Assembly (NCBI GenBank): GCA_016706425.1
Contig: JADJJR010000001.1
Span: forward strand, 491,133-555,132
Source of the DNA: Elusimicrobiota bacterium
Lineage (GTDB): Bacteria > Elusimicrobiota > Elusimicrobia > FEN-1173
DNA: 64,000 nt
Direction of reading: 5' to 3'
The notes under the pieces were generated by a model. It searched no databases, was not told where the DNA came from, and saw nothing but the letters and a program-made list of their open reading frames with translations. The position numbers and the translations under genes were made by a program. Positions 22,643 to 42,406 of the stretch are shown in pieces; position 1 is the stretch's first letter, and every line of letters begins with the position of its first letter.

Positions 22643-22715
22643 GCCGAGGTAGCTCAGTCGGTAGAGCACAGGTCTGAAAAACCTGGTGTCGTCAGTTCGA
22701 TTCTGACCCTCGGCA
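22643..22715 (+). tRNA. tRNA-Phe (anticodon GAA)
   Basis: A 73-nt cloverleaf: the acceptor stem GCCGAGG pairs with CCTCGGC. The D-arm is GCTCAGTCGGTAGAGC. The anticodon stem-loop is CAGGT-CTGAAAA-ACCTG with GAA at positions 34-36. The T-arm is GTCAG-TTCGATT-CTGAC and the discriminator is A. There is no encoded CCA. The sequence is near-identical in architecture to canonical bacterial tRNA-Phe. Confidence 0.85.
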
Positions 22716-24607: not shown

Positions 24608-24747
24608 TCCTTTGTTTCTTGGGGCCCCTGTCTGATCCGGTTTCCGAACAGAAGAACCATTGAAAATACCCCCTCCCGGGGGTAGGCTTTAATAGGGGTT
24701 TCCATGGCGGCAACGGTCGGAAAAAACTGTTGGTTTCTGAGGGGATT

Positions 24748-26745: not shown

Positions 26746-26757
26746 AAGGAGCGACGA

Positions 26758-27558
26758 TTGAAACCGACCAACCGAGGCGTCACTTTGGTGGAATTGACAA
26801 TCGTATCCGCCCTCGTCGCCGTATTGGCCGTTTTCGCCGGTCGGATCCTCACCGGGGGCACGCGGACCACGGTGCGGTGGACCTTGAGCGCCGACGCCAT
26901 GGAAAAAACCCAGGTGGCCTTAACCAAAATTGAATTTGACCTGGAGGAAATGACGGTGGTGTCTTCCAGCACCCCCCGGTTCCTTGAATTTCAATTGGAT
27001 TCGAACCGATTGCCCGGGTATAACCCAACCGGGGACTTCGACGCCGACGGATTGACCAACGAATTCGACGTGGACGACGACGCCGATATGATCGGGGTGG
27101 GGGGCGTTCCCATCCCCGCCACCGACATGAACGGGAACGACCTCTGGGACCAAGACGACGACAACGATGGGAACATCGATGTCCAATGCCGTTATTACAT
27201 CGACGCGAACCAAAATTTGGTTCGGGATTTCAATTACCAGGAATCGGGATGGGGCAACAACGTTGAAATTCTGTTGGATTCAATTTCCGGTTCCATTTTC
27301 AAATATTTTGGATCCGTCAACCAAATTCCCGGGCCCAGCGCGGACAGCAATCGAGACAACATCGTGACCTGGCAGGAAATCGATCAAAACCCCGCGACCG
27401 GCAACAGCAACGGAGTGATCGACACCACCGCGGAGCGGCTTTACATCAATTCAATCAGCGTCCACTTGGTTATAGATAAAAACAACGACACGCTCCCCGA
27501 TTTTTCGACGGAGCTTCGGATTCGTCCGCCGTTGTTGATGGTCAACCGGAGGGTGTGA
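26758..27558 (+). CDS. Prepilin-type (pseudopilin-like) protein with Asp-rich calcium-binding-type repeats
   Basis: The N-terminus MKPTNRG|VTLVELTIVSALVAVLAVFAG is a class III signal. Repeated DxDxDG-like motifs occur (DFDADGLTNEFDVDDDADMIGVGG...DLWDQDDDNDGNIDV). AAGGAG precedes a TTG start. Confidence 0.6.
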   Translation: MKPTNRGVTLVELTIVSALVAVLAVFAGRILTGGTRTTVRWTLSADAMEKTQVALTKIEFDLEEMTVVSSSTPRFLEFQLDSNRLPGYNPTGDFDADGLTNEFDVDDDADMIGVGGVPIPATDMNGNDLWDQDDDNDGNIDVQCRYYIDANQNLVRDFNYQESGWGNNVEILLDSISGSIFKYFGSVNQIPGPSADSNRDNIVTWQEIDQNPATGNSNGVIDTTAERLYINSISVHLVIDKNNDTLPDFSTELRIRPPLLMVNRRV

Positions 27559-28913
27559 TGAGGAAATTCCAGGTAAAGGGTTTCGCCCTGGGAATGGTCG
27601 CCCTGTTTATGCTGTTCCTCATCCCCATGGCCTTCACTTTGATTCAGCGCACCGTTCGTTTAAACCGGACGGTCTGGCGGGAGCAGGCCTCCGGCGTGGG
27701 TCGCCGTTTGGCCAGCGAGGTCATGGTGGACTACATGAGCCAATTCTCCAAAGGGTCCGGGTACTATGAAGACCACTTCAGCGCCTCGAGTTTGGCCCGG
27801 ACGGCCTCGATTTTCTCGGCCGGGGGCTCGACGGCCACCGTGATCCCGAACCCGGCGGCGCGGACAATTCTGATCCGCGCCCAAGGGAAGGCGAGGACAA
27901 CGGGCCAATCCACCCCGGAAAAAAACATCGAGGCGCTGATCCGTTTCATCCCCCTGGTGGGACAATTTGCCTTTGAGTTTCCCTTTAATTTTACGGACAA
28001 CGTTCCCGGGGATGTTTACGACGGTCCGGTCCGGGTGGGCATGAATTTTAATGTCGCCGGGGCGAACATTATTTTCAATCAGCCCGTGCTGGTGGGGCAA
28101 AACTTGAACGCGCGGATGGACACTCGATTCAATTCCCAGGTGTATCACGGCGGGACCCTCAACCCCGCGTACACCCCCGTGGTCTACACGGCCGGAGTTC
28201 CGATCCCCGATGTCTCTCCGACAAAATATTTCTCCATCGATCCCGTCTACTACGCCAACATATGCACGACGAGCTCCTTGGTCACGACCTGGTGGGAGTT
28301 TCAGGACAACGCGGGCGTGGGGGAATTCCGGTCCACCATGGATCAAAACGGGGATTTTAATATTGATGGGGCCGATGGGCTCCCAGGGCCTTGGACCCCC
28401 GTTCCCGCGTCCGGCGGCGTGTTTTTCACGTGGAACGTGAAAACCTTCGTGTCGGGCACCGTTCGGGGGAGAGTGACCATCGTTTCGGGATGCAGCGGGG
28501 GGGCCCCCAACGACGGTGTGCGCGGGGCCATCGAGGTTGTCGGGGCGTTTGGGTATCCCGGGGCCCAACTTTACGCCAACCCGCAGAGTTCTATTTTTCT
28601 CCTTGCGGGTCGACGGTTCATCTTGGACATCGTGGTGAATGGTCCGACAACCATGGCGGGGGCTTTCTATGTGGAAAACCCGATTTACAACAGCCCGGAA
28701 TGCGGGGGGGGGGGCGACGCCAGCCTTATAAGAAGGCGGGGGGTGGGGGCTGTGGGGGGCGACCAAATCAATATTTACGGTTCTTGGAACAACTCAGGCT
28801 CATGCGAGGCCTTTAATTGGAGGGTTTTCCACGATCCCAGTTTAACCCTTTATCCCGCTCCCGGCGTCCCCGAATACCCGGCCCTCATGAGCTGGCGGCG
28901 TTACAGGAATTAG
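27558..28913 (+). CDS. PilX-like N-terminal hydrophobic-helix protein (minor pilin or pilus assembly-like), third gene of the pilin-like operon
   Basis: GGAGG RBS. MMRKFQVKGFALGMVALFMLFLIPMAFTLIQ resembles PilX N-terminal domains. The 451-aa beta-rich body carries a Gly-rich stretch. It overlaps the previous gene's stop. Confidence 0.45.
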   Translation: MRKFQVKGFALGMVALFMLFLIPMAFTLIQRTVRLNRTVWREQASGVGRRLASEVMVDYMSQFSKGSGYYEDHFSASSLARTASIFSAGGSTATVIPNPAARTILIRAQGKARTTGQSTPEKNIEALIRFIPLVGQFAFEFPFNFTDNVPGDVYDGPVRVGMNFNVAGANIIFNQPVLVGQNLNARMDTRFNSQVYHGGTLNPAYTPVVYTAGVPIPDVSPTKYFSIDPVYYANICTTSSLVTTWWEFQDNAGVGEFRSTMDQNGDFNIDGADGLPGPWTPVPASGGVFFTWNVKTFVSGTVRGRVTIVSGCSGGAPNDGVRGAIEVVGAFGYPGAQLYANPQSSIFLLAGRRFILDIVVNGPTTMAGAFYVENPIYNSPECGGGGDASLIRRRGVGAVGGDQINIYGSWNNSGSCEAFNWRVFHDPSLTLYPAPGVPEYPALMSWRRYRN

Positions 28914-29191: not shown

Positions 29192-29692
29192 CTATTGCAA
29201 AGTCCGGGTTAGAACGCTCCGGGGAATTTGGGTTTCCCGGGCGGGTCGCAACCAGCGCGGCGGGGGCCGACGGGTCCAGGTGGCGAACCCCAATTTTTCT
29301 CCCCGGTAAAAAGCGCGATAGGCGGCCACCGCGTCCCCCGGGACCCGGTATTTTTCGGGCATGGCCTGGGCGAAGGGCGTCAATCCGCGCCGCGGGAAAC
29401 GCGCCCCGGCGATGGCCTTTAACACCGCGATGGATTTGTGATCGGTGCTTTTAGGATATCGGTGCCGGTATTCCTCGTTCAGCGCCAGGGCCAAGGACCG
29501 CAACCAACAAAAGTTGTCGTGGGATTCACCCGCCCAGAGCACGCAGGGGTGGTTGACGTGGGTGGAACGGTAGGGGGTTTTGAATCCCTTCCCATTGAGG
29601 ACGGTGCAGAGAATCTGCACGCTCTCCAAGATCATCTTGATCACGTGCTGGTCGCAGTGGGCGCGCGCGCAGCGGGCAATGGCGCGATCCAA
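29192..29692 (-). CDS. Candidate pyrimidine-dimer DNA glycosylase (T4 endonuclease V / DenV-like, Pyr_excise family)
   Basis: 166 aa. The N-terminus ...RAHCDQHVIKMILESVQIL... and HVNHPCVLWAGESHDNFCWLRSLALALNEEYRHRYPKS parallel T4 endoV (..ADQHLMAEYRELPRV.., ..HVTFFYDKLEFLRKRQIEL..). This is weak, motif-level similarity only. Confidence 0.4.
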   Translation of the reverse strand: MDRAIARCARAHCDQHVIKMILESVQILCTVLNGKGFKTPYRSTHVNHPCVLWAGESHDNFCWLRSLALALNEEYRHRYPKSTDHKSIAVLKAIAGARFPRRGLTPFAQAMPEKYRVPGDAVAAYRAFYRGEKLGFATWTRRPPPRWLRPARETQIPRSVLTRTLQ

Positions 29693-29718
29693 AATAAAAA
29701 TGTTCAGAGTGCCCCCGT

Positions 29719-32700
29719 TTAGGCTTGGGTGAGGAGGGTCCGGAGGTTCTCGATTTCCCGGGCGATGGCCGCGGACAGCCGGGCCACACCGATGATAACA
29801 AAACCCTCGAGCGGGACGACCGCCTCGTCGTTGCGCGCGATGACGCGCGAACCCCGACCGATGGGGTTCTCGGCGCCCGCGGCGTTCCAGCGGTCAATCC
29901 AATCCACCAACGCCGTGAGCACCAACCGACCCGCGCCGTCCGCCAGGCCCGGGGCTTCGCCGGGGGTGACGAAACGGACGCGCGCGCCACGCCGCGCCGC
30001 TTCGGTCCAAAGGTCCCCCAGGGGGCCCGGTCGGTCCGCCGGCACCACCAGCGTCGTCCCCGGTTGGAGGGCGCCGACGAGGCCGGAGAGATAACGCCGG
30101 GTTCGATCCCGTTCTTCCGCTTCCCAGGAGTCAAACCCCAAGAGGTTCACGTGCAGAGTGGTTTCATTGCGCCTCTCCGCTTCCCGCGCGGCGGCGGCGC
30201 CGGTTTCCCGCAGGGCCGACCCTTCCAGGGCCGCCGCGGTCACCCGGCCGTCGAGAATCGCCCGGGCGGTGGGCGCGTCCGCCGCCAAAAGGCGGACGGT
30301 GGGGACAAATCCTTCTTCCAGTTGATCATCGGAAGCCCCGACGACGCGCCGGCGCAGGTCCTCCAGACCGGTGGCCCCCCAATAATTGTCCCCGTTCTTA
30401 AAGACGGCGGGGGGCACGTCGAAACGGACGGGCCCGGCCTCGCCCAAAAGCAAGGATCGCAACAGCGCCGCGCGCGCGGCGCTGTCGTCCGTCAGTCGGC
30501 CGGTCCCGCGCCGCAGGAAAACGACGCCTCCCAGCATGGCCAAAGCCGTGGCGGGCGTCCCCGGGGCCTCGGACACCCGTTGCGGTTTGACGTCCACCAC
30601 GATTTCCGCCCCGCTGTAGGGCACCCGGAAACGGACTTCGTACCGCCCCCCGCCCAGATTTTTCGAACTCAGATAGACAACGCCCGGGTAACGCCGCTGT
30701 TCGGCCAGGCGAACGGCCGCCCGCAGGGGGGCCGTGAGCAGGTCCACCTCCTTGGGGGAGAGGACGTGGGGAGCCGCGGTAATACTTCCATCGAGAAAAC
30801 GGTGGGCCATCCAGCGTTGTGCGTTGATTTGATTTTGGTCGTAGGCGATCCGAACCACGGACAAACCCGCGTAAAACTCCATGGCGCGGGCGGTGTCTTC
30901 AAGCGCCATGCCCTCGTCCTGGGTGGGTGTGATTTTCTTGGAGCGGAGCCGCTCGCTCCGTTCCAAATGGGACAGTTCGTGAACCAGGGCCACAAACACA
31001 TACGCCGGTTGAGCGTCCGCCCCCCCGATGTAAATAACAGAACGTCCGTTTCTTAATTCGGCCGCGGCCGCGGCCTCCGGCCCTTTCGGCGCCACGACGA
31101 TGTGGGGGCGCGTCTTTTCCAGGACGTGGCGAAAACGTCCCTTTTCGAATCTCCCCAAATGTTCGATGGTGGAGGCCAGGACGGAGGCGCTGGTGGCGTC
31201 GTTCGCGTTCCTCAGGAGGGCCGCGAGGTCGGTCCCGGCCGGAAGCGACCTGGCCAACTCCTTTTTTAAAGCCGGAGCAATTTTTTGCGTCACCAGGGCT
31301 TCGTTGAGGGACCAGGCCGGGGGGGGCGTCCCTTGGGCAACGACCAAAAGGGGAAGAACGAACAACGCCGCGGCCAGCATCAATGGAGCGACGGCGCGCG
31401 CCAACGGGCCGCCCAGCCGGGGCATGTTCTCGATAACGTTTCGTGCGGCCCGGGACCAACGACGCATCCCGGCCAACACCGCCCCCGCCGGTGGAATGGC
31501 GGGGGGGATCGTTGCCTCCGCGGTGGGGACCCGACGCGGCGCCCGGGCGATCGTCTCGCTGAGCGCCATCCGGACCGAAACGATTTGGGGAACCAGCCGG
31601 GCGCGGGTTTCAGGGCCCGCGTCCGTTCCCGCCATCTTCCAGGACAGGGCCAAACTCATTTCAAGGCCGACAGCGGCGGGCGCGCCCAGGGAGAGGGCCC
31701 GCGCCGCCGCGGAGGCGTGGGCGGCGGTGACTTTTTCACGAATCTCCTCTCGAAGCTTCGCGATCAATTCGGCGCGCGACTCCTCCGGGGAGCGGTCGGG
31801 GCGGTCGGCCAGGCCCGCCAGTTCCGCGGGTGCGAAATGCAACAACACATAGTCCGCCACGGCATCCAGACTTCCCAGATGGATGTTCTCCGAACGGAGG
31901 GATTCGCCAATTCCCCAGGCGACTTCCACCTGGGTCACCAGGGGCTCCCCGGAGGGAAACCGCAGGGTTTCCCCTCCAAAAAAAGCCTGTTCCTCCCGGG
32001 GCGATAAACCGACGCCGCGGGGGTAGCCCTCGCGGGTCCCACGCCACCACATCTTGAAGAAGAAGGGCCACGCCGCCCACGCGGGGATGTTGACCAGCAA
32101 TTTTTCGGCGGAGGGATCGTGCATGACACCCCCGGTGATTTTGTCCCTCAACAGAGCCGCGAGGCGAACGGGGAACCGATCGGGGGTGTTCGCGCCCCGC
32201 GCTTCCCCCGGAAGGCGCAGCCAACCCTCGTTGTTCAGAAAAGTCAGAGCGTAGCCCAAATCTTTTCCCAGGGGCACGCCCAGCCAACGGCGCGCGGCCA
32301 ACCGGAGTCGAATCGCCCGAACGGCCGCGCGGGGGAAAGGGATTTCAATCAACACATTTTCGCCGTCGCCGTAGGTCATGAGGGACGGCGGCACGTCGAA
32401 CAATCCCTCCTCTTGCCATTTCTCGGCCAGACGGCCGCTTTGCCCGTTCAAGGCCCGGTCCATGGAGGACAACGACCCCAGCGGGGCGGGGGTCGCGTCG
32501 GGCATGGCTTCGAGGGCCCCCAGGGTGAGGTCGGGGGCGATGGCCAAGGCCTCGCGGCCCCCGGCGGGGACGGCCGGGGGGCGGCGGTTTATCCAGCCAT
32601 ACAATGTCGCGGCAAACCGGCTCATTCGCGTGGGTTCCACGGCCGGGGACGGCCCGGCCGGATCGCCAAAGCCGGTGCGGGTGTGGGCGAAGAAGGTGGA

Positions 32701-35700
32701 CGGGTCCTCGTAACCGGCCCGGTGTTTTTCATACCGGGTTTTCAATCGGTGGGGGGTGTCGAAGAGCCAGTGAATTCCATTGCCCAAGAACGTCCCCAAT
32801 CCCAGGGCCCCTCGAATGGGGGCGCGCCATAAAGCGTTGAACGCATGGGGCAGAGCGCGCCTCGCCCAACGGGCCGCGACGACGGCCGTTAACGCCCACG
32901 GAAGGGGGGACCCAATTTGGTGTGGAGCGGGTGGGCCCGCCGGCGGGGTCGCCGGCGAGTCGCCAAAGTCCGCCACGCTTTCCCAATGGATCTGGGAATC
33001 CAAGAAGGTTGTGTCCGATGGGGGGCGGGGTTTTTGCCGCGCCCACCGCGCCACGATCGCGCCGGCCAACCCCAATCCTGTCACCGCCATCAAAATCGGG
33101 TTGGTCAGGCGGAAAGTCGCCGCTGCCAGGCCGCCTGTTTCAGAAACGGGGGCGACCGCGAGGGAGCCGACCGACGGGACCAAGGGAACCGCCGCGCCCG
33201 CCGCGGCGGTTTCAACGGCCGCCGGCGCCCCCTCGATCGCCGCGCGCAGGAAGATTTCCTGGCCGGGGAAGATCAAATTGGGATCGACCAAACCGTTTAA
33301 GCGGGCCACGTCCATCACGCGGGCGACGAGTTCCGCGTTGTTGCCCCCCTCCGCGAATTGGAGGATGCGCCACAGGGAATCGCCCTGTTCGACGAGAGCT
33401 TTCAGACCGCCTCCTTCCAACGGGATCAGAGTGGCGGCGCCGGCGACGTCAACGGGCGCCAAAAACAGGGCGGTCAGGAGGAGGGCGCCTAAAGCGACGC
33501 CCCAAAGGCTCCCTCGCCGCGTCGGCAAAGGATCGAAAACGGTGGCCTCCCGGGTCTCGGCAAAGTCCCGCCGGGCGGGGGTCAGAGTGCCGTTGGTGGA
33601 AAAATCATGGATGATGATGTCGTTGCCGTCGCGAACCACCTCAAAGTGGAGCCGGGACACCCCCCCCAACATCGCGGGGGCGAGGCCCAGGCGACGTTCC
33701 ATCACCCCCCGACCCATCACAAGGGGGCGTTGACCGTCCCCTCCCGTCGGCGCGTCGCGGCGCGCCCCGTTGGGCGCGAGGAGGAAAAGCGCTCCGTTCG
33801 TCGGATCGATGTCGAGTACGAAAGTCGGGCCGGCGACCACGGGAACCGGCAAATCCGATATGGGCAATCGCGAGACGCGGCGCTCGCTGTTTCGCAAAAG
33901 ACGGACGGTTTGGGTCGCATGGCCCCAGGCTTCAACGACCCGGGTCTCATAAAGCGTGGGGTCGGCTGTGGTTTTGAAAGCGTTCCGCAACCGGACCACC
34001 CCGGGTTTGAGGGCCTCCGGGCTCAGGGGTTCCCGGGCCAAATCGAGGAGGGCCGCGGTCAAATGGTCCTGGGCGGGGACGGTGGGGGGACGCGGGGTCT
34101 CGAGGCCGGGGTTCGCCGGGGCCCGCCGGTCCTGAAAAAGCGCGTTCGGGGAAGGCGCAAGCACGGTGGGCTCGAAGGATGGCCCCACGGGGGGCCGGGC
34201 CCCATCGGGGGAGGGCGATCCCGCGAATGGGTTCCATCGCGTTTCTTCCACGCCCTCCATCAACCAACGGAAAAAGGCGGACCCCCGCAACGCCGCGGGC
34301 AGCGGACGCGCCCCAAACCAGGTCGTGACGGGGGCCGCCAACCAGGTCACCAAGAGAAAAATCACCAAAGGGGTAAAGGAGATGTTGTACGCCCAGAAGG
34401 CGACGATCCAAGCGGTTGCGGCCAATGCGACGATGCCGGTGGATCGAAAAGCGTCCGCGAGCGTGAGCCCCCGGGAGGCCCTTTCGGCCTCGGATTGAAC
34501 TTTCCAGGTCAATCGGTTTCCAAGGATTCGAGCCGTTGCTCGGAAAGCGCGCAAGGGCCCGAAAACGATTTCCGGGAAATACATGAAGGGGGATGTCACT
34601 ATTTCCATCCCGCCGATCAAGAGGTCCCGGGCCGCGTTGGTCCCCGCCCGAGCGGCGGTTGACCGGTCGCCCGCCCACAACGCTCGAAGCGCGTCGATCG
34701 CGGAGCGGGCGGGCTGGTACAGTTTGGGCAAGAGAACCAACCCCACCCCGACGATCAAGAACGAAGCCCACATTAAAACGGGGTTGGAGTGCACGATCGG
34801 GGAGCCGGGAAAAGCCGACAGCATTGTCATGGATGTCCAGACAATGAAAAGGGGCGCTTGCACGAAAATGCGCGTGGAGTAATGGGCGATATAAAGCGCC
34901 TCAAAAGAGAAAGGAACGACCTCCTTGGACCACGACCAACTCCAGGGCGCCTTTTGCCCCGCGGTGCGGGCGGTTCCGCGAGCGAAGAGGTCGAACAGGC
35001 GCCCGAAAATCCCCGGCGATAAGTAGGCGGCGTTCAACAGGTCGCCGACGGTCCATCGAAGGGCCTGTTCTTGTCGACTGATCGGGTTGGCCGGGGTGTC
35101 CTCGTAGAACGCAACATCTCCGGTGTACGCCGGGTTGAGAAACAGAGCTTCAATCGTGTCGTGGCTGAGCAGGGCGGGGGGCAAAACCTCCCGGGGGGAG
35201 GCGGGGGTCCCGACAAATTGGTCCAAAAAGGTTTCGTTGCGGGCGAGTCCTTTGCCGTAGGCCCCTCCCCGCCCGAGAAGTTGAAACTGGGTTTCCGGGA
35301 TGCGGGACATCCACCGGTGGGTCAGGGTGCTGCGGAATTGGGTCCACGTTTCGAGGCGGGCCGGAAGAAGGCCGGGTTGAATGAACCCACGGTCCGGGTT
35401 GGCGGCGCCGATTTCAACCAAACGGCGAATTGTTCCCGGTGGCGCTCGGTTGTCGGCGTCCATTAAAATGCTGAAGACAACGGGACGGGGGTTTTCCCCG
35501 AACGAGGAGCGCCCTTCCCGCAGGCCGGCAATGTCCGCGGCCATTCGTTGGTCCAACGCGTCGATTTCGGGGTCGTTGGGGCCGGGGGGCGGTTCAATGT
35601 TGCCGCGCGCGCCGAACGTCGGTTTCTCCGCGCTGCGATCGCCCCGGTCCAAATAGTTGATCGGGCGTTCTTGGCCCCGCGTCGCCAACGCCATGAAATC

Positions 35701-38700
35701 AAGGTACTGACCGGGTTTCTTTAATACGGTCGAGGCGCGGTGGAGGTATTTGAGACCTTGGGCGGTCCGCTCGATCAGATCGAGAACGGCGGCGTCCCGC
35801 GCGCCTCCCGTCAGACCCGCGGCCTCCCAGCGGGTCTCATGGAACAACCAAAAATCGTCCCGCGGTCCGGGGACGGCCCGACCCGCGCGTCGTGCCCCGG
35901 CTTCTTCGGATAAAATCCGCCGTATCTGTTCACGCGCGTTTTCGATCGAATCCAATTCGTGGGTCACGATGCCCCGGGGCGCGGAGGCGCTGACGAGCAC
36001 GGCGATCACGTTCCCCCGGGGATCCAGATTGTCGAGGTACGACCGCGTCATATTGTCCACGGCTTCCGCCGAGCTTTCCCGGTGGGTCGACCGGAGCATG
36101 TACGTCAACGCCGTCCGGGCACCGTCGGGGACACCGTCGCTGAAATTCGAACGCCGCAACACCGCGGCGCCCTTCACGGGGAAAGCGGAACGAAGCGTGA
36201 GGAGAATCAAATCGGCCACGCCCCCGTTCAAAACGAAGGTGATGGCCAAATACAGCGCGGCGATCGGGGTCGAGGAGGCCGACCAATCGAGCGTCAGCGC
36301 GAAGAGCCCGGTCAAGGCCGTTGCGAGAACGAGGACTTCTCCCAGATAACGACGCGTCGCGGGCAATGCGGGAGCCGTCCGGCGGCCCGGCTCCATCGGT
36401 TGGTTTCGAAAATCCGCCCCCCGCCCTTCGCCGTCCCGGCCGCGCAGGCCATCCACAAAGCCCGCCCAGGCCGCCGTTAGCACGCGGGGATTCCGGGTCC
36501 GGACCGCCACCCGGAGGACTCGGAGAATGGTTAACGTTGTTTCGACCAGTCGCAACAGGGGTTTGGAAGCGAGGGGGGAATTGTAAGTGAAGATCAAAAC
36601 CATAGATCGGACAATGTAGTAAGTGCGCGCGGGAGAAAAATTGCCATAAAGGTCCCCGTCCAAACTCTGATGGACGTTGTGTAAAATTTTTTCCCGCACG
36701 GGCGCCATGGCGATTTGGTCGCCGCCTTGTCGCACACGGGAAAACCAATCGCGGTCTTCGTTGCCGAAAAAGTAGCCTGATTTAAAAAGCCCGTGTTTGG
36801 AAAAAGCCTCCAAACGGACCAGGACCGCCGCTGTGGCCACCCCATCCACAGCGGCCTTCTCCCCGGTGGGGACGCCGTTGCCCCGGTCCGAGGCCCATTG
36901 CCCGGGCCAGCGCCACACGTTGTGGTACCAGTTTCGCCACACCCGATCGGGACGGTTTTCAAAGTGGAGGGGCGGCGCCCAGGCCACCCGGTCCGGGGAA
37001 TCGGACTCCGCCGCCACGACCATATCCTCCAAGCTGGACGCCGTGAGGCGCACATCGCTGTCGACCAGGAAAACATAATCCGGTCTGTCGGCGGGCGCCC
37101 GTTCGAGGAGGCGCCTCAGTCCGACGTTGCGACCCTCCGCGGCCCCGGTGTTCCGGTCGTTGACGATCAATGTGCTCCGGGGGACTTGCGCCACGGCCCG
37201 GGCCAGGGTTTCGGCCGGCGCGTCGGTCGAGGCGTTGTCGACCACGATCAACTCCCAAGGGGTTTTCCCAGCGGGCCAGGCGGCCATTCGTTCGATGGCG
37301 CGCACCGTGTCGCCGGTGTCGTTGTGGGTCAATATCAGGATCGCCGCCCGGGGGACGGTGCCAACGGGGCGCGCGGGTCGGGGGGTGGGAGGCGTGGGTC
37401 GTCCCGCGCGGGGGAATCGAATGACGAGAAGGTTCACGGTCGCGTGCAGGCCGAGAAAAACGAGATAGGCCACTTGGGCGGGGGTCAAACCCACGACGGC
37501 CGTTCCATCGGCGGGCAGGCCCAACAGGAGACCCGCCACCGCGACGAGCCCCGCCGCCAAGGCGGCGTTGCCCTTGGCACGGCGGCGATCGCGGGTGAGG
37601 AAATCCCCGAGGTGGAGCACGGCGTAAGCGGCGAGGGACAGACGGACGAACAAATCGAAATCCCCCGGCAGGCCGACGGCCGCGCCGATCCCGGCGGCGA
37701 TGAGCCCGGCGAGACCGGCTTCCGTCGGCACCGAAAGGCCTCGGTAGCGGGCCGCGGTGACATGCAACGCCTTGGGGGTGGACGCGTTCCACAATCGCGG
37801 GAGCCAGAACATCATTCCGCCGACCGTGTTTGGTCCCGGGTCGAAGTTGTTTCGCCAGCGGGCCGCCCAGGTTTCGGCGGCGTCGTTGAACCGGGCGTGG
37901 AGGTCGTTGGTGCCGATGCGGAACGACACGCCGCCCCGCAGGGGGTCGCGGGACACCGTCACGCCGGGTTCGGCGACGGTGGTCCGTCCGGTTTGCATCA
38001 GGTGCTGGAGGGCCAAGTAAAAACGCTGAACCACGCCCGGCCCCGCCAGCGCGATGGGGCGCGAGAGGTAAACCCGCTCGCCCGAGACCAGCTTTTCGAT
38101 GGGCAGGGGGTCCTGGGCGAGGAGGTCCAGATAGGGGTTGTCGGCGGGGATCTCGCGCATCGCGGGAGCGACCACCACGTAGGACACCTGTTGGCGCCGC
38201 CAGAGGGCCATCAAACCGTCGGTGTGGAAGCCCCCCGCCACCAGCACGCCCCGGTCGGCGCCGCGGGCGGCGATGGCGTCGAGGAGGTTTTGGGACAGGG
38301 CCGCGTTCCGGCTCAAGGCCAATTCGCAGAAATCCTCAAAGGGTTTTAATTCCGCGGCCGTGAAGTCCGTCGCGTCCGCGGCCGGGTCAAGGCCCTGGTA
38401 CCGGGCGTTCAGGGCGAGGAGCCCGTCGCGCCGCGCCGTGTAATCGCGCCAGTCCGTCGGGGCCAGCGTGTGGGCGAAGGCTTTTTCCAAAAGCGCCAGG
38501 TCCCGCGCGATTCCGACCAGCGCCCGTTCCCGGGGGGTCCGGGCCAAGGCGTTTTGGACGCGATTTCGACGGACGGCGATTTCCTCCAAAAGGGCCGCGC
38601 GATCGATGGCGTCGGCCGAGGACACGTAATCGATGTAAGCGGAAAGGGGGGCGAAGGCGCGGAGGTCGACGCCGTGGGCGCGCGCCACGGACCGGAGGCG

Positions 38701-39735
38701 CGCGTGGTATCGACCCACGCTCATCCGGCCCGCCCGCACGTCGAGGCCGCTGGAAACGAGGTCCGCCAAGGCGGGCCTTGGCAGACGGTCCACCAGGGCG
38801 TTGACCAGTCGGCGCCGCTCGACTTCCACCGCCTTGAAATCCAGCGTTCTTTCGAGTCGGGCGATTTTATTCAGCGCCTCGATGTTGGGCGCCTTCGGTA
38901 ACGCGCGCGCCGGAACCGCTCCGTTCAAATACTCCAAATACGCCGTGAGCGACAATCGACCTTCGTCGTGGTCGCGCGTCCGCCGGTGAAACGCCCGCAG
39001 GGCCGGCGAAGCGTGGGCGAGCTCCGCGCGGTCGAGGCGGTCTTGGAATCGCCGGAGACGGTCCCGAAGCGGGGCCGCGTTGGCCCGCGCGGCGCGGAGC
39101 GCGGCCACGTTTTGGTGGTAAAGGTCGTCGTCCTCGGCGCCGATGACGAGAGGGCTTCGGGGCGCGGTGAGCGCCGCGTGTTCCGGGCCGGCGATGAGGC
39201 CCCGCTGAAGGAGAAAATCGGCGATGGTTCCGGTTGTCGCGCTGTCGGGAAAACGCCGCAGGGCTTCGACATCGATGGGGCCCGAAGCCCCTTCGAGCGC
39301 CACGGGGCCCGCGGGATCGGCGTCGGCCAGGCGGCCCACCAAGGCGGCGATGTGCCGTTGGGCGTCCTCAACGCCGTGGGCGTCTTGAATGTGGACGATG
39401 AGCGGCGCTCCGGAACGCGGGGAAATGTGTGCTTCGCGCACCCAGCCGTGTTCGGCCACCAGGGCCGAGAGCCAATCGGACGGCGAAGCCGGTGGGGCGG
39501 CTGGTCGGTCGAAAGCGAGGGGAGCCGCGCCCGGGAGGGCCGCCAGAAGGGGGGAAGGATTCACACTCGGGGCGTGTGTCGATTCTTGTGATCGCAACCG
39601 GCGGGAAATCTCCCGCCGGGAATCCCAAAGAGAGCTTTCTTGGGCGTAGAGGCCCACCCCTTGAACCGCGAAAACAACGGCGGCCAGGGCGAAACGCAAA
39701 ACAGGGGCGGGGCGGGGAATCAAAGTAAAGTTCAT
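29719..39735 (-). CDS. Giant (about 3338 aa) membrane-anchored multidomain protein. Order: signal peptide, conserved N-terminal module, TM cluster, GT2 glycosyltransferase, OpgH-like processive glucan synthase with TM helices, FHA domain, TM, LysM domain, large unknown region, zincin-like HExxH, C-terminal region
   Basis: The ORF is continuous. Its start is taken at ATG 39735 (MNFTLIPRPAPVLRFALAAVVFAVQGVGLYAQE, a signal-like segment with an AGGAA RBS) rather than the track's upstream ATG at 39858. Domain evidence is given in the separate domain entries. Confidence 0.8.
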   Translation of the reverse strand: MNFTLIPRPAPVLRFALAAVVFAVQGVGLYAQESSLWDSRREISRRLRSQESTHAPSVNPSPLLAALPGAAPLAFDRPAAPPASPSDWLSALVAEHGWVREAHISPRSGAPLIVHIQDAHGVEDAQRHIAALVGRLADADPAGPVALEGASGPIDVEALRRFPDSATTGTIADFLLQRGLIAGPEHAALTAPRSPLVIGAEDDDLYHQNVAALRAARANAAPLRDRLRRFQDRLDRAELAHASPALRAFHRRTRDHDEGRLSLTAYLEYLNGAVPARALPKAPNIEALNKIARLERTLDFKAVEVERRRLVNALVDRLPRPALADLVSSGLDVRAGRMSVGRYHARLRSVARAHGVDLRAFAPLSAYIDYVSSADAIDRAALLEEIAVRRNRVQNALARTPRERALVGIARDLALLEKAFAHTLAPTDWRDYTARRDGLLALNARYQGLDPAADATDFTAAELKPFEDFCELALSRNAALSQNLLDAIAARGADRGVLVAGGFHTDGLMALWRRQQVSYVVVAPAMREIPADNPYLDLLAQDPLPIEKLVSGERVYLSRPIALAGPGVVQRFYLALQHLMQTGRTTVAEPGVTVSRDPLRGGVSFRIGTNDLHARFNDAAETWAARWRNNFDPGPNTVGGMMFWLPRLWNASTPKALHVTAARYRGLSVPTEAGLAGLIAAGIGAAVGLPGDFDLFVRLSLAAYAVLHLGDFLTRDRRRAKGNAALAAGLVAVAGLLLGLPADGTAVVGLTPAQVAYLVFLGLHATVNLLVIRFPRAGRPTPPTPRPARPVGTVPRAAILILTHNDTGDTVRAIERMAAWPAGKTPWELIVVDNASTDAPAETLARAVAQVPRSTLIVNDRNTGAAEGRNVGLRRLLERAPADRPDYVFLVDSDVRLTASSLEDMVVAAESDSPDRVAWAPPLHFENRPDRVWRNWYHNVWRWPGQWASDRGNGVPTGEKAAVDGVATAAVLVRLEAFSKHGLFKSGYFFGNEDRDWFSRVRQGGDQIAMAPVREKILHNVHQSLDGDLYGNFSPARTYYIVRSMVLIFTYNSPLASKPLLRLVETTLTILRVLRVAVRTRNPRVLTAAWAGFVDGLRGRDGEGRGADFRNQPMEPGRRTAPALPATRRYLGEVLVLATALTGLFALTLDWSASSTPIAALYLAITFVLNGGVADLILLTLRSAFPVKGAAVLRRSNFSDGVPDGARTALTYMLRSTHRESSAEAVDNMTRSYLDNLDPRGNVIAVLVSASAPRGIVTHELDSIENAREQIRRILSEEAGARRAGRAVPGPRDDFWLFHETRWEAAGLTGGARDAAVLDLIERTAQGLKYLHRASTVLKKPGQYLDFMALATRGQERPINYLDRGDRSAEKPTFGARGNIEPPPGPNDPEIDALDQRMAADIAGLREGRSSFGENPRPVVFSILMDADNRAPPGTIRRLVEIGAANPDRGFIQPGLLPARLETWTQFRSTLTHRWMSRIPETQFQLLGRGGAYGKGLARNETFLDQFVGTPASPREVLPPALLSHDTIEALFLNPAYTGDVAFYEDTPANPISRQEQALRWTVGDLLNAAYLSPGIFGRLFDLFARGTARTAGQKAPWSWSWSKEVVPFSFEALYIAHYSTRIFVQAPLFIVWTSMTMLSAFPGSPIVHSNPVLMWASFLIVGVGLVLLPKLYQPARSAIDALRALWAGDRSTAARAGTNAARDLLIGGMEIVTSPFMYFPEIVFGPLRAFRATARILGNRLTWKVQSEAERASRGLTLADAFRSTGIVALAATAWIVAFWAYNISFTPLVIFLLVTWLAAPVTTWFGARPLPAALRGSAFFRWLMEGVEETRWNPFAGSPSPDGARPPVGPSFEPTVLAPSPNALFQDRRAPANPGLETPRPPTVPAQDHLTAALLDLAREPLSPEALKPGVVRLRNAFKTTADPTLYETRVVEAWGHATQTVRLLRNSERRVSRLPISDLPVPVVAGPTFVLDIDPTNGALFLLAPNGARRDAPTGGDGQRPLVMGRGVMERRLGLAPAMLGGVSRLHFEVVRDGNDIIIHDFSTNGTLTPARRDFAETREATVFDPLPTRRGSLWGVALGALLLTALFLAPVDVAGAATLIPLEGGGLKALVEQGDSLWRILQFAEGGNNAELVARVMDVARLNGLVDPNLIFPGQEIFLRAAIEGAPAAVETAAAGAAVPLVPSVGSLAVAPVSETGGLAAATFRLTNPILMAVTGLGLAGAIVARWARQKPRPPSDTTFLDSQIHWESVADFGDSPATPPAGPPAPHQIGSPLPWALTAVVAARWARRALPHAFNALWRAPIRGALGLGTFLGNGIHWLFDTPHRLKTRYEKHRAGYEDPSTFFAHTRTGFGDPAGPSPAVEPTRMSRFAATLYGWINRRPPAVPAGGREALAIAPDLTLGALEAMPDATPAPLGSLSSMDRALNGQSGRLAEKWQEEGLFDVPPSLMTYGDGENVLIEIPFPRAAVRAIRLRLAARRWLGVPLGKDLGYALTFLNNEGWLRLPGEARGANTPDRFPVRLAALLRDKITGGVMHDPSAEKLLVNIPAWAAWPFFFKMWWRGTREGYPRGVGLSPREEQAFFGGETLRFPSGEPLVTQVEVAWGIGESLRSENIHLGSLDAVADYVLLHFAPAELAGLADRPDRSPEESRAELIAKLREEIREKVTAAHASAAARALSLGAPAAVGLEMSLALSWKMAGTDAGPETRARLVPQIVSVRMALSETIARAPRRVPTAEATIPPAIPPAGAVLAGMRRWSRAARNVIENMPRLGGPLARAVAPLMLAAALFVLPLLVVAQGTPPPAWSLNEALVTQKIAPALKKELARSLPAGTDLAALLRNANDATSASVLASTIEHLGRFEKGRFRHVLEKTRPHIVVAPKGPEAAAAAELRNGRSVIYIGGADAQPAYVFVALVHELSHLERSERLRSKKITPTQDEGMALEDTARAMEFYAGLSVVRIAYDQNQINAQRWMAHRFLDGSITAAPHVLSPKEVDLLTAPLRAAVRLAEQRRYPGVVYLSSKNLGGGRYEVRFRVPYSGAEIVVDVKPQRVSEAPGTPATALAMLGGVVFLRRGTGRLTDDSAARAALLRSLLLGEAGPVRFDVPPAVFKNGDNYWGATGLEDLRRRVVGASDDQLEEGFVPTVRLLAADAPTARAILDGRVTAAALEGSALRETGAAAAREAERRNETTLHVNLLGFDSWEAEERDRTRRYLSGLVGALQPGTTLVVPADRPGPLGDLWTEAARRGARVRFVTPGEAPGLADGAGRLVLTALVDWIDRWNAAGAENPIGRGSRVIARNDEAVVPLEGFVIIGVARLSAAIAREIENLRTLLTQA
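30800..31200 (-). other. Zincin-like HExxH motif region (DUF4157-like) near the C-terminal third
   Basis: AQPAYVFVALVHELSHLERSE (about 30961-31020) is an HExxH motif with a downstream Glu. This is motif-level evidence only. Confidence 0.35.
33270..33420 (-). other. LysM (peptidoglycan/glycan-binding) domain
   Basis: GLKALVEQGDSLWRILQFAEGGNNAELVARVMDVARLNGLVDPNLIFPGQEIFL matches the LysM consensus (..V..GDTL..IA.......l..lN.l..p.l..GQ.l.iP). A predicted TM helix precedes it. Confidence 0.65.
33560..33850 (-). other. FHA (forkhead-associated, phosphothreonine-binding) domain
   Basis: PLVMGRGVMERRLGLAPAMLGGVSRLHFEVVRDGNDIIIHDFSTNGTLTP shows the GR...D..L....VSR.H..I.......i.D.gStNGT pattern. 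Confidence 0.7.
34100..36400 (-). other. OpgH/MdoH-like processive beta-glucan synthase region (GT2 with QxxRW) flanked by TM helices
   Basis: The motifs read ...ILMDADNRAPPGTIRRLVEIGAANPDRGFIQPGL..., LLSHDTIEAL (about 35150-35176, compare OpgH LSHDfvEA) and QEQALRWTVGDL (about 35041-35075, compare RDRRWCQGNL). Multiple hydrophobic helices lie on either side. Confidence 0.7.
36650..37350 (-). other. GT2 (GT-A fold) glycosyltransferase domain of the giant protein
   Basis: AAILILTHND...WELIVVDNASTDAP...NDRNTGAAEGRNVGL...DYVFLVDSDVRL: DNASTD at about 37221-37240, a DxD-like motif and a nucleotide-sugar binding pattern. Confidence 0.75.
38150..39450 (-). other. Conserved N-terminal module shared with the plus-strand giant protein (unknown function)
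   Basis: Colinear with the plus-strand gene: ..HIQDAHG.E.AQRH...LV..L......V.LEGA.G..., APRSP, LDFK.VE.ER..L..ALV, GRY.A.L, L.AYI.Y, L.P.EW..Y, L.PFE.FC..AL.RN.AL..NLL, GVLV.GGFHT.GL, VV.AP. Confidence 0.6.
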
Positions 39736-39857
39736 TCCTAATAGCTTAATGACCCTAGGCGAATGTCGCATTAAGTGGATGTAAATTGCTTGTAACAGTG
39801 AGCCGGCGGGGAAATCGGAAAAATTTCGTGTATGATTCCCTGGAAAGGAGGAAATCA

Positions 39858-40229
39858 ATGCTTTGGCGATTGGCGGCCGATGGGGTCGCCCTCATTCACG
39901 GTTTGTGGGTGCTGGCGGTGGTCCTGGGACCCTTTTGGGCTTTGCGGCGACCGGTGGGTCGGACCTGGGTGGTGACTCTCTTGCTCGCGACGGCTTTTTT
40001 TTGGGCGTTTTATTGCCCTCTGACCGTCCTTGAAAATTTCCTCCGTTCAAATTACGATCCCGCCGGGGTGTACACCGAGGGTTTCCTGGCCCGTTACGTG
40101 CGGCCCTGCGCCGACGCCCGCCGCTGCGGTCCCGCCCTGGCGTGGGGGGTTCGTTTGTGGGCGGGCCTGTGGGTGGTCGTGTACGCTTTTTTGTGGGGGC
40201 GGGAACGCCGCCGAGCGTTGCGGAATTAA
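39858..40229 (+). CDS. DUF2784-like small membrane protein, divergent from the giant minus-strand gene
   Basis: A strong RBS GGAAAGGAGGAAATCAATG precedes it. 123 aa from MLWRLAADGVALIHGLWVLAVVLGPFW... with 3-4 TM helices. Confidence 0.55.
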   Translation: MLWRLAADGVALIHGLWVLAVVLGPFWALRRPVGRTWVVTLLLATAFFWAFYCPLTVLENFLRSNYDPAGVYTEGFLARYVRPCADARRCGPALAWGVRLWAGLWVVVYAFLWGRERRRALRN

Positions 40230-40768
40230 TTCGCCGTTTTCGGTTGTTGGACTTTGGCCTTCCGGGGGACCCCCGCGTTCACCCGGTCCAACACCTTTTG
40301 CCGGTGGGTGGGCACAAGCCATTCGAGGATCAGCCAAATCTCCCTTTTGTCGGTGGATTGAAGCACCAGGGCGGCGTTGCTTTGGTCGGGGGCCCGGTCG
40401 TCGAAACGGACCGAGGCCACCTCCGACCAGGCCATTTTGGCCGGCCCGTTCAAGCTTTGAATCGCAAGGCCGTCCTTGGTAAAACGCCACTCGATCACCG
40501 GCCGGGCGGGTCGAGCGAATAACAATCCCACCCCGCAAAGGATGGACAGCGTCGGGGCCAAAAACCCCAGGGCGCGCGCGCTCAATCCCCAATGCAAATG
40601 ACGGACCGTCCAAGGCGCCACCCGCGCGCGGAAGAAAAACGCCAAAGGCATCAACACCAACCCGACCATGGCCAGCACCGTGAAAAACAACGGCAGGGTG
40701 GGGCTCATCCAAATCAGGGTCAAATCCGCCCCTTTTTCCATCAAAGTGTAACCGGTGGAAAGCGTCAT
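40226..40768 (-). CDS. Membrane protein with two N-terminal TM helices and a PH-like (bPH/YdbS-like) soluble domain
   Basis: 180 aa. TM segments LPLFFTVLAMVGLVLMPLAFFF and ALGFLAPTLSILCGVGLLF are followed by the beta-rich ...VIEWRFTKDGLAIQSLNG...SVRFDD.... The stop overlaps DUF2784 (TTAA). Confidence 0.45.
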   Translation of the reverse strand: MTLSTGYTLMEKGADLTLIWMSPTLPLFFTVLAMVGLVLMPLAFFFRARVAPWTVRHLHWGLSARALGFLAPTLSILCGVGLLFARPARPVIEWRFTKDGLAIQSLNGPAKMAWSEVASVRFDDRAPDQSNAALVLQSTDKREIWLILEWLVPTHRQKVLDRVNAGVPRKAKVQQPKTAN

Positions 40769-40795
40769 GGGTCTCCTATCCTAGCATAGCCGCCG

Positions 40796-42406
40796 TCAAA
40801 ACACGTGCCCGGTGGCGAACGTGAAAACCGGGGAACGGTTTCCGTCGTCGTGCGCCCGCGTTGGCCAGGCCAAATCGAACCGCAGGACGTTGCCCAGGCT
40901 CGCCCGGGACAGGTGAAGGCGGAGCCCCACGCCGTAATCGCCCCGCAGATCGGCGGCTTTGACGGGCTCGCCCCGGGCCCAGGCGTATCCCACGTCGGCG
41001 AAGGCCGCCGCGCCCAGACCGAAGAAGTTCAAAATGTCGTCGACAATGAAAATCCGGTTTTCCAGGTTGGCGACAAACAGGCGGTTGCCCTCGAACGCGC
41101 TCACGGGGTAACCGCGCAGGCCCCGGTCCCCGCCCAGAAGAAGTTGGGTGTCCACCGAGGGGTTCAGCACGTTCTCCCAGGCCGCGTGGGCCGCCCAGGT
41201 CGTCCATTTTTTCGCGTGATTGTAATATTCGAGGTCCCACCGCTGTTGGGCGTTTTCCCACCCGTTTTCGTAGCGGCCGCGCCCGGCGACGGTCAGCAAC
41301 GCGAACGCGTGGCGGGACCGGGCGATCCCCCGGCTCCAGACGCCTTCAACGGAGGTCGCGTTGCGGGATCCCGTGACCCATCGTTGGCTTGAGAAGCCCG
41401 CGCGCAGGTCCAGCGTGGGGCCCATGTTGTAGTCCTCCTCGCGGCTGAACAATCGGATGTGGTCGGTCGTGATGAACCGGTTGCGGCTCCATTCCAGGGT
41501 CGGGCCGAAATAATGGTAGACCCGGTCGGTCTCCAGGCCGGGGACGGGGACCGGGGTTTCCAGCCGTTCGTGTTCGTACCGGTAGGCCACGCCCAGGCGG
41601 CGGATCCGACGGGGGGTGGACCAGAGGGACACGCCCACGCCGCCGCCCAAGGACCGGTCCTCGTTGGTGAACCGGGCGACTTCGTCCCCGTCGGCGTAGA
41701 GGAGGGTGTCTTTTTTATTGTAGTCGCCGGAACCCTTGAAAGCGAAAGGGGTCAAGCTGGAAAAGAAGGGCCGCTCCAGTTTGAGCGCCCGCGCGGAGCC
41801 CTCGTCGGTGTCCTCGTAGACCCCGGCCAGGCGCAGGCGCGTGCCGAACAAGCCGGGGTCGTCGTAGGAAAGCCCGCGGCTGATGTTGTCGAGGTCTTTT
41901 TTGTACGACACGTTGATCTGCTTGCCGAGCCCGAAGAGGTTGCGTTCGCGCACCCCGAACCGGTACTTGGTTTCCCCGCCCGTGCTCGAGACCGAGGCGT
42001 AGGGTTCCGTGGTCCAGGTGTCCTGGGTTTCCACCACCACATCCACCCGCCGGTTGCCGACCGGCATCGGGCGGACGTGCACGTCGCGCAAGCGGAGGAT
42101 CCGCCGCAACGCGCGTTCGGTCTCCTCCGCGAGATCCGGGTCGTAAGGGTCGCCCGGTTTGAAAAGCAATTGATTGCGAATGGTGTTGTCCCGGGTGGAA
42201 AAATGCAGATGGTTGACGAACCGGTACAAACGCTTGTTTTCCGAGGGGACGCTCGTGTCGAAAATGGCCCGCCGCAAAATATAGACCCGGGCGATGCGGT
42301 GGCCCCGGAAGGACGGGGGCGCGGCGGTCGCGGCGGGGGGGAAAGCCAGCGCCAGGCCCAAAAGAGAGGCCAGAGCGGGGCGGGGGAGGGCCCAACGGGG
42401 TTTCAT
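40796..42406 (-). CDS. Short Omp85-family outer-membrane protein (bacterial surface antigen D15 beta-barrel; TamA/TpsB-like size with 1-2 POTRA)
   Basis: 536 aa with the signal peptide MKPRWALPRPALASLLGLALAFPPAATAA and a POTRA-like N-terminal region. A long beta-barrel follows, with alternating strands, G-rich turns and the terminal ...FATGHVF (C-terminal F). Confidence 0.7.
   Translation of the reverse strand: MKPRWALPRPALASLLGLALAFPPAATAAPPSFRGHRIARVYILRRAIFDTSVPSENKRLYRFVNHLHFSTRDNTIRNQLLFKPGDPYDPDLAEETERALRRILRLRDVHVRPMPVGNRRVDVVVETQDTWTTEPYASVSSTGGETKYRFGVRERNLFGLGKQINVSYKKDLDNISRGLSYDDPGLFGTRLRLAGVYEDTDEGSARALKLERPFFSSLTPFAFKGSGDYNKKDTLLYADGDEVARFTNEDRSLGGGVGVSLWSTPRRIRRLGVAYRYEHERLETPVPVPGLETDRVYHYFGPTLEWSRNRFITTDHIRLFSREEDYNMGPTLDLRAGFSSQRWVTGSRNATSVEGVWSRGIARSRHAFALLTVAGRGRYENGWENAQQRWDLEYYNHAKKWTTWAAHAAWENVLNPSVDTQLLLGGDRGLRGYPVSAFEGNRLFVANLENRIFIVDDILNFFGLGAAAFADVGYAWARGEPVKAADLRGDYGVGLRLHLSRASLGNVLRFDLAWPTRAHDDGNRSPVFTFATGHVF

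Follow-up and report, generated by a model that had tools for sequence, protein, structure and literature searches.

The osmoregulated periplasmic beta-1,2-glucans of Escherichia coli are made by OpgH (MdoH), a synthase of glycosyltransferase (GT) family 2 (GT2). A second synthase of reference is Cgs/NdvB, the cyclic beta-1,2-glucan synthase, which has a GT84 domain and a solved structure (PDB 8rf9, 8rf0). Here we describe giant1, a minus-strand gene of an uncultured Elusimicrobiota bacterium in which two GT modules, GT2a and GT2b, lie within a membrane protein that also bears FHA and LysM domains. The gene was studied in a stretch of 64,000 nucleotides (the window; assembly GCA_016706425.1, contig JADJJR010000001.1, positions 491,133 to 555,132), for which a preliminary description made from the letters alone was at hand. 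On balance, giant1 seems fairly likely to be an envelope-spanning scaffold that carries two sugar-polymerising GT modules, which, tethered in this way, would make and export a glucan-type polymer.

In Actinobacteria, FHA domains take part in the control of cell-envelope synthesis, as in the binding of phosphorylated MviN/MurJ by FhaA and in EmbR. The FHA protein in these systems is a separate one with a known Hanks-kinase partner. Giant multi-enzyme proteins of the general kind of giant1 are already described. The 'Archaeovorin' giants of Omnitrophota combine many transmembrane (TM) helices and many enzymes (GT5/GT1, PGM/PMM, PPDK, SecA-like, methyltransferase and HEAT domains), and in the N-terminal regions of Omnitrophota giants no domains could be identified except C39/S8 peptidases (West-Roberts et al. 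2023, bioRxiv 10.1101/2023.11.21.568195). The giant1 sequence itself is public yet uncharacterised. What appear to be new are the OpgH-like family with two GTs, its embedding in an FHA/LysM scaffold, a series of relatives with no, one or two GT modules, and a TIKI-like N-terminal domain (the head) as a common start of giant open reading frames (ORFs). The origin of giant bacterial genes is poorly understood, and the locus gives a clean natural series in which, between syntenic copies, whole enzyme units are present or absent in frame and the predicted membrane topology is undisturbed.

The giant1 reading frame and its orthologues

The coding sequence of giant1 spans 29719..39735 on the minus strand, stop codon included, and encodes 3338 aa. 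In the ORF listing and its translation the frame is open without interruption from 29719 to 39858 (-), and its first ATG is at 39735, exactly where the preliminary description had placed the start. The GC content at third codon positions (GC3) stays at 0.72-0.87 across all 200-codon blocks. An exact-sequence look-up gave 15 contigs that encode the identical 3338-aa protein and stem from independent assemblies (NCBI, JGI and Logan), among them a 2.5-Mb contig of GCA_016702405.1. The copies come from metagenome-assembled genomes (MAGs) of uncultured Elusimicrobiota from activated sludge (wastewater). Because of these 15 identical contigs, and of the intact orthologues of 3289, 2740 and 2410 aa described below, the objection that frameshifts had fused several genes was rejected; giant1 is a single genuine ORF, as had been supposed, and not a frameshift artefact.

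Full-length giant1 is present in at least six NCBI MAG records, where the product name is merely 'glycosyltransferase'. In several NCBI MAG records the gene is broken up, with 2 to 5 pieces that measure 142 to 2537 aa, and among the names given by PGAP to such pieces are 'FHA domain-containing protein' (the 142-aa piece) and 'LysM peptidoglycan-binding domain-containing protein'. The broken copies belong to a cluster of more than 90% identity, which is consistent with indel errors of long-read assemblies, probably their cause. The split records show how giant genes become hidden in annotation.

Homologues of giant1 were sought segment by segment. The orthologue P0050 (2410 aa, intact) lacks both GTs, the residue corresponding to ~785 of giant1 being joined straight to ~1852, and its locus is syntenic, flanked by a DUF2784 gene and a 173-aa gene. 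At the syntenic locus L013 both GTs are absent at the same ~785/~1852 junction, RFPR(A/V)GRP...FQDRRAP; this copy bears frameshifts and a stop. Both keep the N-terminal domain, FHA, LysM, and the middle and C-terminal domains. In L018 (2740 aa, intact) GT2a is kept (giant1 residues 7-1111) and only the unit of 2 TM helices, GT2b and 4 TM helices is missing, with ~1111 joined to ~1852. The full architecture is found in P0049 (3289 aa; L017 10001-19870), whose identity to giant1 is 91% before residue ~2125 and 74% after it. The C-terminal domain of P0049 is closer (82%) to that of the GT-less L013 copy, making the protein a mosaic; such a pattern suggests that populations living together have recombined, the breakpoint lying close to LysM.

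All differences in GT content among the orthologues fall within one proline-rich linker, predicted to be cytoplasmic. In the predicted topology each GT module begins and ends in the cytoplasm and has an even number of TM helices, so that the topology of the scaffold would be kept in every variant. When direct repeats were sought at the module junctions, no shared word exceeded 7 nt, a length not above that expected from shuffled sequence. A lone insertion of a two-GT cassette was considered as the only scenario and dropped, since L018 keeps GT2a alone. As judged from these comparisons, FHA and LysM are parts of a scaffold that also exists without a glycan synthase, because they are kept in the GT-less orthologues and GT2b occurs elsewhere without them.

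Domains and predicted membrane topology

GT2a (residues ~786-1111; 36403..37380, -) is a soluble GT-A glycosyltransferase of family 2 with DNASTD, DSD and NED motifs. PF00535 matches residues 799-942 at 55-59 bits (cut-off 23.3; E 1e-14 to 9e-16), which gives strong support to the GT2 domain proposed earlier. The DSD at 892-894 and the NED at ~992-994 are invariant in the homologue alignment. The TIGR01556 rhamnosyltransferase model aligns with GT2a nearly end to end, far under its cut-off. The motifs cited in the preliminary description could all be located: DNAS(TD) at 833, LSHD at 1523, QxxRW at 1557 and HExxH at 2919.

GT2b (residues ~1112-1851; 34183..36402, -) consists of 2 TM helices, a GT2 domain at ~1185-1620 (DAD, LSHDTIEA, QALRW), predicted to be cytoplasmic, and 4 TM helices, the helices being placed by hydropathy. 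A segment search with this region gave just three homologues (~1030-1107 aa, 40% identity), annotated as GT2 and derived from a Gammaproteobacteria MAG and from metagenomes. When the profile of these four sequences was compared with E. coli OpgH, hhalign reported a probability of 97% (E 1.3e-10) over 313 columns that span DAD, LSHDxxEA, RWxxG and the C-terminal TM helices. In hmmsearch at equal database size OpgH was matched with E 4e-9 and the cyclic beta-1,2-glucan synthase 8rf9 with E 1.6e-4; BcsA, used as a control, was not matched. The N-terminal half of GT2b is collinear with OpgH, motif for motif. Of the processive GT2 motif set DAD, SHD and QALRW are kept, and the first Asp is replaced by Ala. 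On these profile comparisons, GT2b is related to OpgH and Cgs remotely but specifically.

The GT2a-GT2b block also exists as a free-standing gene. A genome scan detected it in three Gammaproteobacteria MAGs as a gene of ~1100 aa, the proteins (P0001-3, L006-8) extending precisely from GT2a to the last TM helix, and no conserved neighbours of this gene were found there. GT2b occurs, in addition, within giant ORFs that start with the head, one of 4371 aa in Planctomycetales and one of 1825 aa in another Elusimicrobia; neither FHA nor LysM was found in the other giant proteins with GT2b. The GT2a and OpgH-like pair is a rare, unannotated synthase family of two enzymes, which might point to a so far undescribed way of making periplasmic or envelope glucans.

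By hydropathy giant1 has 14 TM helices and an N-terminal hydrophobic segment, and the Arg/Lys flanks of all 14 helices fit one model. In the predicted order the head lies inside and is followed by 4 TM helices, GT2a inside, 2 TM helices, GT2b inside and 4 TM helices; then come a linker and FHA inside, a TM helix, LysM outside, a TM helix, the middle domain inside, a TM helix and the HExxH domain outside. The four-TM cluster that precedes GT2a (residues 671-772; 37420..37725, -) was placed by hydropathy and flanking charge, with RDRRRAK between TM2 and TM3 and RFPRAGRP after TM4. The helix at residues 2077-2095 (33451..33507, -; hydropathy 2.16), with three Arg/Lys on its N-side and none on its C-side, would take the chain to the periplasm. 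From hydropathy and flanking charge, the helix at 2212-2232 (33040..33102, -) would bring it back to the cytoplasm, and the last helix is at 2781-2799 (31339..31395, -; hydropathy 2.64). The window holds BamA/Omp85, OEP, porin and SpoIID genes, which indicates that the host is diderm. By the charge rules, giant1 is inferred to be a polytopic inner-membrane protein of a diderm Elusimicrobiota bacterium. The sides anticipated earlier (GT2 and FHA cytoplasmic, LysM periplasmic) agree with this model, in which the OpgH-like domain is likewise inside the cell and the HExxH domain is on the periplasmic side.

The FHA-like domain (residues ~1985-2060; 33556..33783, -; predicted cytoplasmic) scored 18.7, 19.7 or 21.7 bits against PF00498 (cut-off 20.7), depending on how the segment was cut, and the L013 orthologue scored 22.9 bits. 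The phosphothreonine-binding residues G-R, S-x-x-H and N-G are kept (MGRG...SRLH...STNGT), likewise in P0048, P0049 and P0050 at 44-50% identity. A phmmer search of the FHA segment against the PDB gave only matches to Rad53 FHA1 at E ~1. The earlier assignment of an FHA domain thus stands on its key residues, all of them conserved, while its score lies at the cut-off only. For LysM (residues 2115-2162; 33250..33393, -) the assignment is confirmed, with 28.1 bits against PF01476 (cut-off 20.9) for the isolated segment; the whole protein gave 20.5 bits and the orthologue P0048 34.7 bits. LysM sits between two TM helices whose charge bias is predicted to set the domain outside, in the periplasm.

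The middle domain (residues 2233-2780; 31396..33039, -; predicted cytoplasmic) gave no Pfam match and no PDB profile match, and its relatives are confined to the orthologue group. Residues 2233-3338 as a whole were matched by only 7 clusters among 1.84 billion representatives. The C-terminal domain (residues 2800-3338; 29722..31338, -), predicted to be periplasmic, carries the HExxH motif at 2919-2923 (30967-30981 in the window). H2919, E2920 and H2923 are invariant in four homologues, including P0052, a stand-alone protein of 641 aa at 30% identity, and from the composition of giant1 ~0.05 occurrences of HExxH are expected by chance. The C-terminal domain had no Pfam match and no PDB profile match at E<=10, thus no detectable zincin homology; the motif noted earlier is real and conserved, but a zincin is not what the domain resembles in these searches. 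The C-terminal residues T-Q-A (29722-29730) are also invariant in all homologues of the C-terminal domain, the 641-aa P0052 included.

The head domain, the second giant gene and the neighbourhood

The head of giant1 (residues ~52-560; 38056..39582, -) recurs in a second giant gene of the window, giant2, which runs on the plus strand from 47956 to 64000 and beyond the window end, with its head at 48193-49677. The full length of giant2 is 9577 aa in GCA_016702405.1, where the head is followed by a weak HD-like domain, UDP-glucose pyrophosphorylase (UDPGP) and starch-synthase GT5 and GT1 domains. Residues 52-558 of giant1 match giant2 with 39% identity (E 6e-81), and no match between the two was found outside these residues. 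The preliminary description had called giant1 a paralogue of the other giant gene; this is correct for the N-terminal head of about 500 aa and for no other region.

No Pfam match and no PDB profile match were obtained for the head. An AlphaFold2 (AF2) model built from 14 homologues was usable (predicted local distance difference test, pLDDT, 78.5; predicted TM-score, pTM, 0.71), and the invariant residues comprise QDxH, EG and GGFHT. A set of catalytic type, D88-x-H90, E118 (at a spacing of 28) and GGFH474 in model numbering, is invariant in the 14 and in 12 further sequences. It matches the TIKI family residues (D/E)xH-27-E...H, the first acidic residue being Asp. In the reference proteins, which have a set of two His and two Glu, the His-Glu spacing is likewise 28 (H3902/E3930 in RRSP, H85/E113 in Bcr135; PMC6254334). 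From model and motifs together, a TIKI/ChaN/erythromycin-esterase-like fold is probable for the head, with an alpha/beta core and a large helical insert.

The hydrophobic segment that precedes the head (residues 12-30; 39646..39702, -) forms a hydropathy peak, with Arg/Lys richer after it than before. Most likely it anchors the protein in the membrane with the next domain on the cytoplasmic side, since in giant2 the same head precedes ~4000 TM-free residues with nucleotide-sugar enzymes and the first TM helix comes no earlier than about residue 4400. The alternative of a cleaved signal peptide and a periplasmic head was rejected, as it would place both GTs and the UDPGP and starch-synthase domains of giant2 outside the cell.

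In a metagenome scan, more than 508 loci were found to encode the head, and the following figures refer to the best 80 of them. The head starts 8-157 residues from the ORF start in all 80 (8-69 in four ORFs cut by a contig end). At least 1500 aa were counted for 50 of the ORFs and at least 3000 aa for 24; the lengths reach more than 3900 aa, and many ORFs extend past the 10-kb flank. Roughly 16 of the 80 do not reach 700 aa, some with truncation at a contig end, and there are proteins of ~520-590 aa that consist of the head and nothing else. When the 80 ORFs were scanned for GT2b and for the middle and C-terminal domains of giant1, the sole match was the orthologue L018. Twelve sampled giants with the head contained SecA-like, PPDK, PGM/PMM, hexokinase, UDPGP, GT2, methyltransferase, HEAT and LysM domains.

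These data allow a wider proposal, which we regard as doubtful at present. The head could define a large undescribed family of membrane-anchored TIKI-type hydrolases that start giant multi-enzyme proteins in Elusimicrobiota, Omnitrophota, Planctomycetota and relatives, 'Archaeovorin'-like giants included. Their genes would grow and shrink by topology-neutral, in-frame gain and loss of enzyme genes in cytoplasmic proline-rich linkers, and the head could cut or control the resulting polyproteins. If this were true, giant1 would have been caught in the act, with orthologues that have no, one or two GTs. The N-terminus of hundreds of giant ORFs, previously regarded as 'domain-less', gains a name and a testable catalytic motif.

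Two further observations concern the giant proteins. Cysteine is strongly depleted, with 1 Cys in 3338 aa of giant1 and 4 in 5348 aa of giant2, compared with 0.40% in 19 neighbouring proteins (binomial P ~2e-5 and ~5e-6, respectively); the orthologues P0049 and P0050 have 1 and 2. In the Planctomycetales ORF with the head and the OpgH-like module (L010 4034-17149, 4371 aa), residues 3243-3630 form an intein splicing domain (PF14890, E 4e-16).

A divergent DUF2784 gene stands between giant1 and two upstream genes on the same strand as giant1 (40226-42406, -), one for an Omp85 protein of the BamA/TamA family and one for a bacterial-PH-like protein of 180 aa. The gene 11 nt downstream of giant1 (29192-29707, -) is pyrimidine-dimer-glycosylase-like and encodes 171 aa. 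The DUF2784 gene and the downstream gene are syntenic in every orthologous locus seen. Three genes of 671, 266 and 452 aa (24730-28913, +) adjoin giant1, two of them with type IV pilin-like N-terminal methylation motifs; this trio is present here and in L017 and absent at the syntenic L013 locus. The sole Rfam match in the window was a tRNA gene (22643-22715, +).

Proposed function, alternatives and comparison with known systems

In the mechanism proposed for giant1 two layers can be distinguished. The scaffold would comprise the anchor, the TIKI/ChaN-like head, 4 TM helices, the proline-rich linker, FHA, LysM, the middle domain and the HExxH domain, and the cargo within the linker would be GT2a and GT2b with its 2 + 4 TM helices. 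On the cytoplasmic side of the membrane, GT2b would take a sugar from a nucleotide donor, most likely glucose by homology to OpgH and Cgs, and build a chain that crosses to the periplasm by way of GT2b's own TM helices; GT2a may prime or decorate the polymer. The product would emerge beside LysM, which may hold the machine at the peptidoglycan, and near the periplasmic HExxH domain, which could act on the envelope or on the product itself. FHA would dock phosphothreonine, whether carried by a partner or by linkers of giant1 itself, and could switch the assembly; it would then serve the scaffold generally and not the synthase specifically. That the UDPGP and GT5 of giant2, behind the same head, reflect a shared supply of sugar nucleotides or co-assembly with giant1 is speculation.

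Several observations weigh against this reading. GT2b of giant1 has no Pfam match, and its score of 10.5 bits (E 0.12) against the NCBIfam OpgH/MdoH model NF003958, with a cut-off of 419, is the reason to conclude that GT2b is not an OpgH orthologue; the earlier naming as an OpgH-like module therefore stands as remote, specific homology but not as OpgH itself. GT2b has VSAS where OpgH has LSDS (the first UDP-binding Asp being changed to Ala) and KPGQ where OpgH has KSGN. Both changes are invariant in the family, and because of them the donor may differ or the activity be altered; if these donor-site substitutions matter, GT2b could show a new donor specificity. The AF2 model of GT2b from four sequences was unusable (pLDDT 41), so that the relation to OpgH rests on profile comparisons, and no opgG-like gene was found in the window. 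The FHA alignment covers profile positions 17-45 of 67 in giant1 and 3-47 in the orthologue. No Ser/Thr kinase and no PP2C phosphatase were found in the window. The preliminary description had taken FHA together with glycan synthesis to imply production gated by Ser/Thr phosphorylation; gating by FHA is plausible but is not implied, as GT-less orthologues keep FHA, GT2b occurs elsewhere without FHA and the window has no kinase. The fold assignment of the head is not firm, since Foldseek of the model against the PDB returned nothing significant and generic P-loop kinases score nearly as high. Lastly, the module series may reflect gain, loss or both, and P0049 is a mosaic.

Three other explanations were considered. 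Instead of acting as one chain, giant1 could be a polyprotein that is cut by the TIKI-type head, by the HExxH domain or by both into the head, the GT cassette, an FHA-LysM piece and the C-terminal domain, in which case the coupling of these parts would be transient. In favour of such processing, the TIKI set is preserved in the head (D-x-H, a Glu 28 positions further on and the distal GGFH), and two TIKI members, RRSP and Tiki, act as site-specific endopeptidases (PMC6254334). The head always stands at the N-terminus of very long multi-enzyme ORFs, long proline-rich linkers separate the modules, and the same role has been proposed for the N-terminal C39/S8 peptidase domains of Omnitrophota giants (West-Roberts et al. 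2023, bioRxiv 10.1101/2023.11.21.568195). However, cleavage sites and processed forms are not known, ChaN and PMT have the same fold and are not proteolytic, two of the domain borders lie in the periplasm whereas the head is predicted to be cytoplasmic, and the head is also found as a stand-alone protein. Processing of this type is considered unlikely.

It is quite improbable that GT2b is a degenerate, non-catalytic relic, from which no polymer would arise, and that giant1 is a signalling or peptidoglycan-associated scaffold with FHA inside and LysM/HExxH outside. The loss of the first nucleotide-binding Asp and the changed KxGN could be read in this way, as could the large insertions relative to OpgH, the lack of a Pfam match and the sister orthologues that manage without the module. 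These substitutions are, however, family-wide and not peculiar to this copy; DAD, SHD and QxxRW do not vary, and homologues from different phyla still share 40% identity across ~1050 residues, which argues for purifying selection on a working enzyme. GT2b also recurs in giants of Planctomycetota, Elusimicrobiota and Omnitrophota. For the view that an error of assembly or annotation joined several genes into this ORF, one could cite the MAG records that split it (142 to 2537 aa) and the frameshifts and stop of the L013 copy. The identical uninterrupted sequence in 15 contigs from different assemblers and samples, the uniform coding GC3, and intact orthologues of 50-90% identity with conserved ends leave this explanation hardly any credibility. 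We retain the scaffold with two polymerising GT modules as the preferred interpretation of giant1, and it can be compared with the systems described so far.

GT2b shares with OpgH a GT2 domain between TM helices, predicted to be cytoplasmic in giant1, the collinear motifs P-x-x-RTAL, DAD, (I/L)LSHDxxEA and RWxxG(N/D)L, and a homologous C-terminal TM region. It differs from OpgH in that identity is ~21% over the aligned part, the GT domain carries a large insert in its N-terminal half, and 2 + 4 TM helices are predicted where OpgH has a larger set; it is also fused to a second GT2 upstream and set in a giant scaffold, and opgG is not nearby in the 64-kb window. Cgs is the only solved structure matched by the GT2b profile, in three collinear pieces: the start of the GT domain (GIPxxxRT...LVS), ILSHDxxE...RWxxGD and the last TM helices. 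Like giant1, Cgs is a very large multi-domain membrane protein whose synthase lies inside a longer chain. The match of GT2b to Cgs is weaker than that to OpgH (23 against 38 bits), and no phosphorylase or cyclase domains of the Cgs type were detected in giant1.

As in the FhaA and EmbR systems, an FHA domain, predicted to be cytoplasmic, is tied in giant1 to what is predicted to be a membrane machine exporting envelope glycan precursors. Unlike those systems, giant1 has its FHA fused in cis and no kinase nearby, and the scaffold exists without any GT. The head resembles RRSP and Bcr135 in its acidic-x-His, in a Glu exactly 28 residues past the His and in the distal G-x-x-H. It is unlike TIKI, TraB, ChaN and the erythromycin-esterase members (RRSP, HopBA1, Bcr135, ChaN) in that no sequence-profile match to them was found, and unlike the TIKI superfamily in having Asp and not Glu as its first acidic residue, a helical insert of ~290 residues, a probable membrane anchor and a fusion to giant multi-enzyme chains. 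Compared with the Archaeovorins, giant1 (3338 aa) and giant2 (9577 aa) are smaller and come from Elusimicrobiota, and giant1 itself has just the GTs of the Archaeovorin repertoire. When compared by description, the twelve head-starting giants sampled here show that domain repertoire, and giant2 shows part of it with its UDPGP, GT5 and GT1 domains.

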